In this document: positions 6,875-9,506 of the stretch, piece by piece
Position numbering within the stretch: the stretch's first letter is position 1
Layout of the letters: every line of letters starts with the position of its first letter
NCBI GenBank assembly: GCA_022117465.1
Contig: JAHCGZ010000005.1
Location: forward strand, 7,544 to 71,543
DNA: 64,000 nt
Source: Candidatus Nitrosopumilus limneticus
GTDB lineage: Archaea > Thermoproteota > Nitrososphaeria > Nitrososphaerales > Nitrosopumilaceae
Direction of reading: 5' to 3'
Position numbers and translations under genes: made by a program
Notes under the pieces: model-generated
What the model was told of the DNA's origin: nothing
Database searches by the model: none
Seen by the model: only the letters and a program-made list of their open reading frames with translations

Positions 6875-7402
6875 ATGCCATTTGTAAAAGAGGGGAACAT
6901 AATGAATCCTGAGATTGCAGCATTGTATAAAGAAATTAATGATGAACTCCAAATTGGAAAAATTCCAAATATTTTAAAAACTACCTCAATTGATCCACAA
7001 ATTGCAAAATGGTTTTGGGATGGAGTAAAAATTATTTTACTTCGTGAATCATCTATTCCAAGAATTTTAAAAGAATCTATTGCAGTTGTAGTATCCAATG
7101 CTAATTCATGTAAATATTGCACACAAGCTCATGGAATGTTACTGCAATTAATGGGATTTACTGATGAGAAAATTTTAGACCTTAAAAATAATTTTACTAG
7201 TTTTTCAGATAAAGAAAAAGCTGCACTAAACTATGCATTAAAAATTAATGATTCTGCAAACATGACAACAAATGATGATCATCAAATTTTAAAAAAACAT
7301 GGATATGATGATAAACAAATTGTGGAGATAACATCTGTTGTTGCAGCATTTAATTGGGCAAATATTATTGCTGATGCATTAGGTACTGAACTGGAATCCT
7401 GA
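6875..7402 (+). CDS. AhpD/carboxymuconolactone decarboxylase family peroxidase-related protein
   Basis: KESIAVVVSNANSCKYCTQAH CxxC motif; C-terminal EITSVVAAFNWANIIADALG. Confidence 0.85.
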   Translation: MPFVKEGNIMNPEIAALYKEINDELQIGKIPNILKTTSIDPQIAKWFWDGVKIILLRESSIPRILKESIAVVVSNANSCKYCTQAHGMLLQLMGFTDEKILDLKNNFTSFSDKEKAALNYALKINDSANMTTNDDHQILKKHGYDDKQIVEITSVVAAFNWANIIADALGTELES

Positions 7403-7436
7403 CTAATAGTTTTAATGATAATTTTTTGATTTGATA

Positions 7437-7474
7437 ATCAATTTTTTGATTGTTTTTTTATTTTATGAAAATTT
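7437..7474 (+). repeat. 38-bp T-rich direct repeat, copy 1, terminator- and TATA-like
   Basis: 37/38 identical to 7592-7629. Confidence 0.85.
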
Positions 7475-7489
7475 AGAGATACAAGTCAA

Positions 7490-7561
7490 GCCAAGATTAG
7501 AAAGGATCATGAAAAGAAGGGGGATTTGAACCAAACTGGAATTCATGTTAATCTAGGCATA
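7490..7561 (+). ncRNA. Candidate small hairpin RNA 1
   Basis: GCCAAGATTAG/TTAATCTAGGC outer stem and CATGAA/TTCATG inner stem; TTTTAT 29 nt upstream; no ORF. Confidence 0.35.
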
Positions 7562-7591
7562 AATTTTGTATAAACCAAAATTACTGTAATT

Positions 7592-7629
7592 ATCAATTTT
7601 TTTATTGTTTTTTTATTTTATGAAAATTT
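7592..7629 (+). repeat. 38-bp T-rich direct repeat, copy 2
   Basis: 37/38 identical to 7437-7474. Confidence 0.85.
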
Positions 7630-7645
7630 TTCAAATCAATACATT

Positions 7646-7716
7646 GCCATAGGTAATGCTGGGCTGCGATAATTCAACTAACGCATCTTTCCGAATTATC
7701 GCGCTACCTTGTGGCC
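7646..7716 (+). ncRNA. Candidate small hairpin RNA 2
   Basis: GCCATAGGTA/TACCTTGTGGC outer stem and a perfect 10-bp GCGATAATTC/GAATTATCGC inner stem; GC-rich patch; TTTTAT 30 nt upstream. Confidence 0.45.
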
Positions 7717-7793
7717 AAATTCTAAAAATAATTACATGTAGTGCCTACATTTTATAGGAAGATTGATAGATTAACCAAATGTGAGTATAGAAA

Positions 7794-8057
7794 ATGGTTA
7801 CTGTTGAAGAAATTGAACATGTTTCAAAATTAATGAAAATAGATGTTGATGATAATGCAGAATATTTAGAAAAAGTTCAAACAATAATTAGTTATTTTGA
7901 TATTTTAGATTCTGCAGGAGTAGAGTCTGAAGAAATCTCGATGCCAGAAATTTCAATTGAAGAATTAAGACGTGATGAATACATTCCCTTTGCTGAAAAG
8001 CTTATTGAAAAAATGAATCATTACAAAGGAACCTATGTACGAGCACCAAAGATGTAA
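7794..8057 (+). CDS. gatC: Asp-tRNA(Asn)/Glu-tRNA(Gln) amidotransferase subunit C
   Basis: EEIEHVSKLMKI...LRRDE...YVRAPK; directly upstream of gatA. Confidence 0.9.
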   Translation: MVTVEEIEHVSKLMKIDVDDNAEYLEKVQTIISYFDILDSAGVESEEISMPEISIEELRRDEYIPFAEKLIEKMNHYKGTYVRAPKM

Positions 8058-9506
8058 TGATGAATCTCAAAATTTCTGCCCTTGAATTTGTCCAAGAAGC
8101 TAAAAACGGTAATATTTCTGTTGAAGAATTTATTGGAAAAACACTTGAAAGAATTAATAAAGTTGAGGATAAACTTCATGCATTTTTATCAATTAATGAT
8201 AAAGCACTTGATCAAGCTCGGTAACATTGATAAAAAAATTAAATCAGGTGAAAAACTTGGTGCATGTTTTGGAATGCCAATATCAATTAAAGATAACATA
8301 TGCATAAAGGATAGTAAAACTACATGTGCATCAAAAATGCTTGAAAACTTTATTGCACCATATGATGCAACAGTAATTTCAAAATTAAAAAAACAAGATG
8401 CAATTTTTATTGGTAAAGTAAACATGGATGAATTTGCCATGGGACTATCAACTGAATTTAGTGCATTTGGTCCAAGCAAAAATCCCTGGAATACAGAATA
8501 TGTGCCAGGTGGTTCATCAGGGGGAAGTGCAGTATCTGTAAGTTCCTATGAATGTGTTGCATCATTGGGTTCTGATACTGGGGGTTCTGTTAGAAATCCT
8601 GCTAGCTTTTGCTCTACTGTTGGCTACAAACCAACTTATGGTTTAATCAGCAGATATGGATTAATTTCATATGCAAATAGCATTGAACAGATAGGACCAC
8701 TTGCTAGAACTGTAAAAGATACTGCATTTATGCTAAATCTGATTGCAGGAATTGATCCTAACGATAACACTACAGTAAACAACAACAATGAGGATTATTT
8801 GGCAAATATTGATGCAGGAATCAAGGGCAAAAGAATTGGAATAATTACTGAAATGATTGGTGAGGGCATAGATCCAGAGGTAATGACTGCTACAAAGGAG
8901 GCAATTTCAAAACTTGAGGGGCTAGGGGCAATTTGTGAAGAGGTATCATTGGGGATGGTAAAGTATTCTGTTGCTGCATATTATACAATTACTGCAACTG
9001 AGGCAGGAAGTAATTTAGCTAGATATGATAATTTAAGATATGGATATGAAATGCCAGTTGAAGGTTACGAGTTTAATTCATACATTTCAAAAACAAGAAA
9101 AAAATTTGGACCTGAGGTAACACGTAGAATGATAATTGGAGGATTTGTACCATCTGCAGGACATGCTGGAAAGTATTTTCTTAAAGCAATGAAAGTAAAA
9201 AGTAAATTAACTAAAGAAATCAATGAGGCATTTAAGAAATTTGATTTACTTATTTCACCAACAGTTCCAATATTGCCATTTAAAATTGGAGAAAAAATTA
9301 ATGATCCTGTATCTCTATTTTTAGTTGACATTAATACAGTTACAGCAAATCTAACTGGAAAACCTGCAATTTCAATTCCATTTAAAATAGTAAATGGATT
9401 ACCAATTGGAATTCAACTCTTAGCAAATTCAATGAATGATAAATTACTATTACAAGCAGCATATGCTTTAGAACAAACTGTTAAACTACCTGAGGTACCA
9501 ATATGA
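8057..9506 (+). CDS. gatA: Amidotransferase subunit A, with an apparent +1 frameshift at about 8220
   Basis: Amidase signatures GGSSGGS and GSDTGGSVR; the natural N-terminus MMNLKISALEF starts at 8057 in another frame and stops at 8222-8224. Confidence 0.95.

Follow-up and report, generated by a model that had tools for sequence, protein, structure and literature searches.

In the intergenic region ahead of gatC, the DNA of Candidatus Nitrosopumilus limneticus carries two tandem units, each combining a promoter-like repeat with a hairpin of about 70 nucleotides (nt), and the question raised by this locus is what these units produce and what their products may do. The window analysed here is a stretch of 64,000 nt (C5:7544-71543 of genome G000), and all positions are given in window coordinates. 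Both units lie between a 175-amino-acid (aa) open reading frame (ORF) upstream (6875-7402; CMD-like) and gatC (7794-8057). G000 is a 1.19-Mb genome with 30% G+C and 95% completeness from a Nitrosopumilus-type genus, and its sequence turns up in many lake metagenomes. We find that the locus holds two real, previously undescribed small RNA genes with a private promoter, here called RNA1 and RNA2. The best explanation as a whole, to which we assign a probability of roughly 55%, is that of two RNA genes with a dedicated promoter, a circular RNA2 and a trans-acting, protein-binding role.

For RNA2, covariance model R1 was run on 301 genomes of the family and model R3 (36 sequences) on 401 genomes of the order; R2 is the covariance model of RNA1. 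Fold z-scores were obtained from 200 shuffles per hairpin and covariation scores from 500 shuffles. RNA contigs were taken from X25, a random-primed, paired lake metatranscriptome, and from its sister run X39, and four DNA runs served for comparison, of which three belong to the X25 study. The main features are:

7434..7474, + strand: promoter copy 1, with ATCAAT (7437-7442), a T-run, the TATA-like ATTTTAT (7460-7466) and then GAAAATTT
about 7488..7559, + strand: RNA1, about 72 nt, both ends predicted, from the fold and model R2
7589..7629, + strand: promoter copy 2, with ATCAAT (7592-7597) and the TATA-like ATTTTAT (7615-7621), its centre about 25 nt before A7643
7643..7715, + strand: RNA2, 73 nt, from models R1 and R3, covariation, the X25 contig and the end of the X39 contig

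The repeat search returned a direct repeat of 41 nt (7434-7474 and 7589-7629; 39/41 identical, 95%; spacing 155), both copies of which end with TTTTATGAAAATTT. The original prediction had described a repeat of 38 bp with 37/38 identities; the repeat stands, but its length had to be corrected. From the two copies the search pattern ATCAAYTTNTN{6,7}TTTTTTNATTT was derived, with the reversed pattern as control. It gave 51 matches in 43/121 genomes of the genus, with a maximum of two per genome, against 0 for the reversed control. RNA1 or RNA2 follows at a fixed distance after all promoter copies that were read, except for G024:C66 and G354:C8, and two promoter copies per genome occur exactly where RNA1 is present. 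The element of copy 1 is found upstream of every RNA1 ortholog, and 50 RNA2 promoters yield the consensus aATCAAtTTTt.cat..tTTTTTtatTTTA at a fixed distance from +1, the conserved block spanning roughly -52 to -23 when counted from the A of AUUGCC. When G000 was scanned without gaps for the complete 38-nt promoter, allowing 9 mismatches at most, no further copies were detected, nor were there any among the side-matches of BLAST, and the tRNA genes of G000 have ordinary TTTAAA/TTTATA boxes without the ATCAAYTTTT element. Altogether, this is a promoter dedicated to RNA1 and RNA2. The conserved upstream ATCAAYTTTT element probably binds a specific, putative transcription factor.

A separate observation concerns the region around the start of the RNA1 promoter. 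At 7411-7447, additional TTTTTTGATT repeats and the inverted repeat TTGAT-N6-ATCAA precede this promoter in all G000-type orthologs. The inverted repeat is absent from both G008-type RNA1 promoters and partial in the RNA2 promoters. Inverted repeats such as this one are of the type bound by dimeric regulators, and TTGAT-N6-ATCAA could be an operator for a presumed regulator.

Both hairpins fold as originally described. They measure about 70 nt and are closed by a terminal stem (GCC...GGC); next come a 7-nt bulge, confined to the 5' side, an inner stem, which stacks on the 3' side, and a large loop. Hairpin 2 (7646-7715) reaches -24.6 kcal/mol (z -3.45; 0/200 shuffles equally stable) and hairpin 1 (7490-7559) reaches -16.5 kcal/mol (z -2.7; 3/200 shuffles as good), thus the control with shuffled sequences proposed at the outset came out in favour of both. 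Folds of the minus strand are weaker (z -1.1 for hairpin 1 and -2.2 for hairpin 2). The perfect 10-bp stem claimed for hairpin 2 was found (GCGATAATTC/GAATTATCGC), as was its high G+C content (0.45 for RNA2 vs 0.30 for the genome). In the case of RNA2, the terminal stem consists of AUU plus GCCAUAGGU and, on the opposite side, ACC-U-UGUGGC; it is followed by the 5' internal loop AAUGCUG, an upper stem (GCGAUAAUUC/GAAUUAUCGC) and an apical loop of 17 nt.

Model R1 matched 42/301 genomes of the family, with a single copy in 41/42 and two copies in one draft genome; the matches include 29/38 of the same-genus genomes listed, plus the sister genera g38 and g20. With R3 the range became no wider, being still confined to the genera g1, g20 and g38 in the order. 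Within the genus, R3 matched 33 genomes and missed at least 14. BLAST against relatives recovered both units, including the promoter, in several genomes of the genus, and the alignments show compensatory changes in the stems. In the alignment of 36 RNA2 sequences, 97.1% of cells are standard pairs, vs 25-51% when the partner is slid, and 7/17 pairs are changed on both sides, for example from U-A to G-C in 11 sequences. The covariation score was reached by 0/500 shuffles. The search for compensatory changes suggested by the original prediction was thus answered positively, with seven pairs in RNA2. Among RNA2 orthologs, the internal loop measures about 11 x 5 nt and is strongly asymmetric. Two single-stranded motifs are conserved: a GG-containing one in the internal loop, which reads AGCUGG or, in certain species, UGAAGG, and ACG(N)CAU, of which the apical loop has one or two copies. 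AUU is kept in 34/36 orthologs despite lying outside the helix. The small ORFs at 7431-7529 and 7656-7757 showed no coding signal among orthologs: the AUG of the 33-aa ORF reads UAG in most of them, and indels are not multiples of three. RNA2 is a genuine structured RNA gene, with a covarying structure and its own promoter. Overall, the repeat and hairpin features are far beyond chance; dozens of genomes have kept the promoter and RNA units.

Important insight on the ends of RNA2 came from X25. This run contains an isolated RNA contig of 103 nt (depth 12) with no flanking sequence attached, in which letters 1-29 correspond to 7686-7714 and letters 30-103 to 7642-7715, each segment reading along the + strand. 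Because 7642 and 7715 are both C, the contig begins and ends with the same 30 letters; for the same reason RNA2 can be written as 7643-7715 or equally as 7642-7714. A length of 103 nt is that of a 73-nt cycle plus an overlap of 30 nt, as an assembler with k=31 prints an isolated cycle, this k being the value assumed for Logan's assembler. The head-to-tail junction, 7715 to 7643 or equally 7714 to 7642, reads ...CUUGUGG(C)AUUGCCAUAGG..., or CUUGUGGC running directly into AUUGCCAUAGG, and is exact, with no added bases. In X39, an RNA contig of 79 nt matches 7673-7715 exactly and then continues into 36 unrelated, A-rich letters (AGTAAGAAAAAAAAAACAAAAAAAGAAAAA), hence with the same 3' boundary. 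This tail may be non-templated, of the heteropolymeric type made by the archaeal exosome, or it may be the flank of another strain. All four DNA runs gave colinear contigs (4.5-11 kb, depth 29-199) whose sole 'joint' is the promoter repeat. Head-to-tail RNA2 is therefore present in RNA, in a single run, and absent from DNA.

From the X25 cycle and the colinear DNA runs it follows that RNA2 is probably circular. In the circle, AUU would form a triloop closing the terminal stem, and its invariance fits a ring. Furthermore, A7643 is preceded by a C, and the centre of ATTTTAT (7615-7621) is found some 25 nt before it, at the usual archaeal distance from TATA box to start. Because of these two features, the 5' end of RNA2 is probably its transcription start. 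The original prediction of independent plus-strand genes starting at GCCA (7490 and 7646) holds for the genes, but the starts are better predicted 2-3 nt upstream, at A7643 and, by analogy, at A7488.

In the case of RNA1, a terminal stem (GCCAAGAUUA/UAAUCUAGGC) is followed by the 5' bulge GAAAGGAU, the inner stem CAUGAA/UUCAUG and an apical loop of 28 nt that contains GGGGGAUUUGAACC. Its start would be A7488, 155 nt before A7643, a distance equal to the repeat spacing. RNA1 is present only in a small subclade (G000, G010, G100, G327, G001, G008, G016, G022, G341, G344 and G376). Its 11 orthologs are 97.6% paired, with two pairs changed on both sides, and the terminal stem shows a compensatory change from C-G to U-A in G341. 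With the RNA2 model, RNA1 goes unrecognised (3.4 bits, E 2.7). The terminal stems are nevertheless alike (GCCAUAGGUUA/UAUCUGUGGC vs GCCAAGAUUA/UAAUCUAUGGC in RNA1). Taken together with the duplicated promoter, this likeness suggests that RNA1 is a subclade-specific paralog of RNA2 with a diverged interior. RNA2 is best explained as the ancestral gene of the pair. The idea of an RNA family with a fixed frame and variable content had to be given up, as there are just two paralog-like genes, at most two per genome and usually one. In G000-type genomes, pairing between RNA1 and RNA2 was no better than in shuffles.

We propose that 7434-7715 comprises two separate genes for small, stable non-coding RNAs, each of which would be transcribed from its own promoter copy, consisting of the TATA-like box and ATCAAYTTTT. 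Transcription of RNA2 would start at or beside A7643, and its 3' end would be trimmed back to C7715, the base with which the terminal helix finishes. This helix would then bring both ends close to each other, ligation would take place through the invariant AUU by a presumed route, and the product would be a dumbbell-shaped circle of 73 nt, safe from exonucleases. Both RNAs would act in trans via their conserved single-stranded patches, and those of RNA2 (AGCUGG/UGAAGG and ACG(N)CAU) may bind a protein, either as subunit of a ribonucleoprotein (RNP) or as a titrating decoy. This protein-binding role is put forward tentatively. It is favoured because the loops of RNA2 show no excess complementarity to tRNAs, compared with shuffles, or to genomic sites; simple complement scans of the genome with loops and bulges, as had been suggested initially for the loops, gave no convincing target.

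Several points weigh against parts of this proposal. RtcB is encoded in the genome (597.7 bits), which speaks for the ring, but a primary 5'-triphosphate end is not a substrate of this ligase. An Rnl3-type ligase (Pfam RNA_ligase PF09414) remained below the cut-off in the 95% complete genome (21.4 vs 27 bits), the sole match lying inside a 591-aa ORF that is probably a DNA ligase. No bulge-helix-bulge (BHB) motif was found at the ends of RNA2, the junction being placed by hand on the covarying helix: in the candidate central helix (7637-7640 with 7710-7713) 2/4 positions pair, and the would-be bulge bases are paired. With no BHB and no Rnl3-type ligase, the ligation route is unexplained. Regarding the circle itself, it comes from one contig of one run, and if RNA2 were abundant and linear, two or more reads with a precise end-to-end template switch would suffice for this cycle. 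Contigs of pure-culture transcriptomes (one organism, RNA2 locus of G171) are colinear at modest depths of 2.7-33, those of four marine runs are colinear or of low depth, and neither set carries information on the ends. RNA2 is dispensable, because at least 14 genomes of the genus are without it. RNA1 covariation is weak, being matched by 25/500 shuffles, because RNA1 is so conserved, and RNA1 transcripts, looked for in the contigs of the RNA runs, were not found. Finally, the tests made here identified neither a protein partner nor a target.

Some of these points are shared by the reading in which RNA2 is linear and the junction is either an artefact, made when reverse transcriptase reaches the 5' end of an RNA and jumps to the 3' end of a second molecule, or a rare by-product. 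The occurrence of the cycle in one run, the few junction reads that suffice for a cycle in the graph, the X39 form ending at 7715 before unrelated A-rich sequence and a ligation explained by neither BHB nor Rnl3-type ligase are all in line with a linear RNA2. However, the junction is exact and without extra bases, and a linear RNA of 73 nt would normally be lost from a random-primed library, whereas the rolling-circle cDNA of a ring would be kept. The near-invariant AUU outside the helix fits a closing loop, and the ends lie at the base of the helix, like those of the circular C/D small RNAs (sRNAs) of Thermococcales (PMC9014305). We regard a linear RNA2 as somewhat unlikely; it would in any case leave the genes, the promoter and the structure standing. 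As regards function, both RNAs could be trans-acting antisense regulators, with the loop of RNA1 pairing to the T-arm and thereby sequestering or sensing tRNAs or pre-tRNAs. The RNA1 loop GGGGGAUUUGAACC (7518-7531) is the exact complement of the T-arm GGUUCAAAUCC, and GGTTCAAATCC, whose exact complement is contained in this loop, occurs in 16 tRNA genes of G000. Duplexes with the loop reach -20 kcal/mol or below for 34/43 tRNAs; shuffled loops average 5.8 such tRNAs, and 0/200 shuffles come as high. The complement is kept in 9/11 RNA1 orthologs. On the other hand, RNA1 of G008 and G327 is without the complement and scores like its own shuffles, the nine orthologs with the motif are closely related and hence not independent, and the T-loop is buried in folded tRNA. 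The missing excess of tRNA complementarity in the RNA2 loops and the lack of convincing targets in the simple genome scans also speak against antisense action, which we consider unlikely. An antisense RNA specific for tRNA-Lys (15+7 bp, -31.4 kcal/mol) was tried and rejected, as the T-loop UCCGAAU of the relatives (nine tRNA-Lys genes recovered from six genomes) is not matched by RNA1; only the generic T-arm complement survives this test.

Two further explanations carry far less weight. The units could form a cis-acting leader, attenuator or terminator of the CMD-like ORF or of gatCAB. In G000 and its closest relatives the pair does lie directly upstream of gatC on the same strand, and some contigs of the RNA libraries are colinear through the region. 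This arrangement, with RNA2 beside RNA1 and gatC, is however confined to the G000/G010 clade. In 10/12 genomes inspected RNA2 lies elsewhere, after a minus-strand gene, with no same-strand gene downstream and convergent with an 84-aa Cys-rich ORF; RNA1 and RNA2 are on different contigs in G001, G008, G327 and G341; and no position upstream of gatC is conserved. Each RNA has its own conserved promoter, and in X25 the gatC RNA contig begins near 7803, with no contig across 7716-7802. The leader reading is thus refuted by synteny, in agreement with the original prediction, and retains hardly any probability. The second is the guide-like reading of that prediction, in which the RNAs are H/ACA-like or other modification guides, with the 5' bulge as guide and ANA as box. 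RNA1 and RNA2 do resemble archaeal H/ACA sRNAs in being single hairpins of similar length (about 70 nt) with an internal loop between lower and upper stem. A(C/U)A follows the RNA1 stem in 6/11 orthologs, and archaeal guide RNAs can be circularised (PMC3326292 and PMC9014305). The loop, however, is one-sided or strongly asymmetric: in G000 the minimum-free-energy fold leaves 7-8 nt unpaired on the 5' side against 0-1 nt on the 3' side, where H/ACA guides would have a two-sided pocket. No GA/AG kink-turn (K-turn) or K-loop for L7Ae is present, the upper stems being regular, covarying Watson-Crick helices, and neither a conserved ACA in the mature RNA nor an rRNA target was found. The ATA after hairpin 1 and AAATTCTAAA after hairpin 2 are present as described but not conserved in relatives. 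The triplet after RNA1 varies (ACA, AUA, ACU, AUC, GUA, AAA), the flanks are not conserved, and the RNA2 3' end at 7715 precedes ANA and TTCTAAA alike, which excludes any ANA in RNA2. As to box C/D guides, the C (RUGAUGA), D (CUGA) and C'/D' boxes are missing. The C-like AUCAUGA of RNA1 is without the essential G, and such C-box-like bases of the inner stem are Watson-Crick paired and covary. Among the C/D models of Rfam, snoR35 scores highest on RNA1 but reaches just 14.2 bits where its gathering score is 40, and at E<=10 Rfam gave nothing but sub-threshold C/D noise in 7000-8200 and no tRNA match, in line with the original statement that no Rfam family is recognisable. With usually one copy per genome there is also no family of guides. 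Altogether, the guide reading is largely refuted already and we consider it very improbable.

A hidden tRNA was also sought. ARAGORN detected only tRNA-Phe and tRNA-Asn in the window and, on window and whole genome, no hidden tRNA at this locus. A permuted or split tRNA was rejected by reading the sequence, since the circle opened at the apical loop gives a 56-nt hairpin and no cloverleaf.

Known archaeal RNA rings provide a useful comparison. Small circular RNAs have been found by circRNA-seq in Sulfolobus (PMC3326292), and Rnl-dependent circularisation of C/D sRNAs is described for Thermococcus kodakarensis (PMC9014305). Like these, RNA2 has about 70 nt and is independently transcribed, and the foot of its terminal helix is where both ends come together, in what would be a ring. 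Unlike them, it lacks the C, D, C' and D' boxes, a K-turn and any match of guide and target, it possesses a dedicated promoter with an upstream element, its genome has no Rnl3-type ligase above the cut-off, and its hosts are Nitrosopumilaceae. Rings excised at BHB motifs, that is, tRNA introns and pre-rRNA circles, are made by the splicing endonuclease and RtcB (PMC7714728). They share with RNA2 the circular product and an encoded ligase of the pathway, RtcB, but given the covarying helix of RNA2, the cut sites show neither 3-nt bulges nor a 4-bp central helix, and the 5' end of RNA2 coincides with the predicted transcription start. In design only, RNA2 is like CsrB/RsmZ, Y RNAs and 6S RNA, which are stable and rod-like with short single-stranded motifs on helices; it is much smaller than 6S RNA or CsrB.

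The neighbourhood of the RNA genes contains further features:

7737..7757, + strand: short hairpin ATGTAG-TGC-CTACAT followed by TTTTATA, read from the sequence
7794..8057, + strand: gatC, 87-aa ORF, context
locus positions about 1582-1836 of L031, L037, L038, L040, L043, L045 and L050, minus strand: Cys-rich ORF

The hairpin at 7737-7757, which was not called by the terminator scan, may be the stop site of the primary RNA2 transcript and may also include the TATA box of gatC. In most genomes of the genus, an ORF of 83-90 aa with a Cys-rich motif (CxC...CxxC) ends a few bases from the RNA2 3' end on the opposite strand; the 3' end of its mRNA must lie against RNA2 or overlap it. The 84-aa ORF is missing in G000, and it was rejected on this ground as an obligatory partner of RNA2.

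Three other observations were made along the way. In L008 (G004:C140), about 1.2 kb from RNA2, the minus strand carries from locus position ~264 a promoter-like TTTTATTTTATGAA and then a GC-richer stretch with terminal complementarity (AAGCAAG...CTTGCTT) and the motifs AGATGATAA and ATCAGA; a similar sequence occurs in L009 (G017). This stretch may be a C/D-box-like sRNA gene. At window position 8220, gatA (ORFs 8057-8224 and 8082-9506) appears frameshifted. Contigs of four independent DNA runs, all at full depth (15-199x), are one base shorter at this position. The genome record therefore contains an extra base through an assembly error, and the frameshift is neither real nor programmed. Lastly, a sub-threshold Rfam match to SNORD36 (25.9 vs 30 bits) with AAUGAUGA at 8052-8116 falls on the overlap of the gatC stop and the gatA start (ATGTAATGATGA), inside coding sequence, and is probably due to chance.

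Few archaea on Earth are as abundant as Nitrosopumilus and its relatives, and to our knowledge almost nothing is known on their regulatory RNAs. The literature search returned no report of RNA1 or RNA2, nor of small circular RNAs in Nitrosopumilaceae. New are the specificity of the promoter, the phyletic range, the mapped ends of RNA2 and its probable circularity. An RNA2 homolog is present at 783,251-783,334 of the contig of G171, presumably the genome of a culturable organism, which makes direct testing possible, and the promoter element offers a way to find the putative transcription factor. Should the ring be real, RNA circularisation would occur in this lineage without the known motifs. 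In a bolder and quite improbable reading, RNA2 would be constitutively circular, made from its primary transcript without BHB or Rnl3, and together with RNA1 as a T-arm antisense RNA and a factor acting as switch on ATCAAYTTTT it would form one system that monitors or sequesters tRNAs or tRNA-binding proteins. If true, this would amount to a new way of making archaeal RNA rings and to a regulatory RNA system in marine and freshwater ammonia oxidisers.

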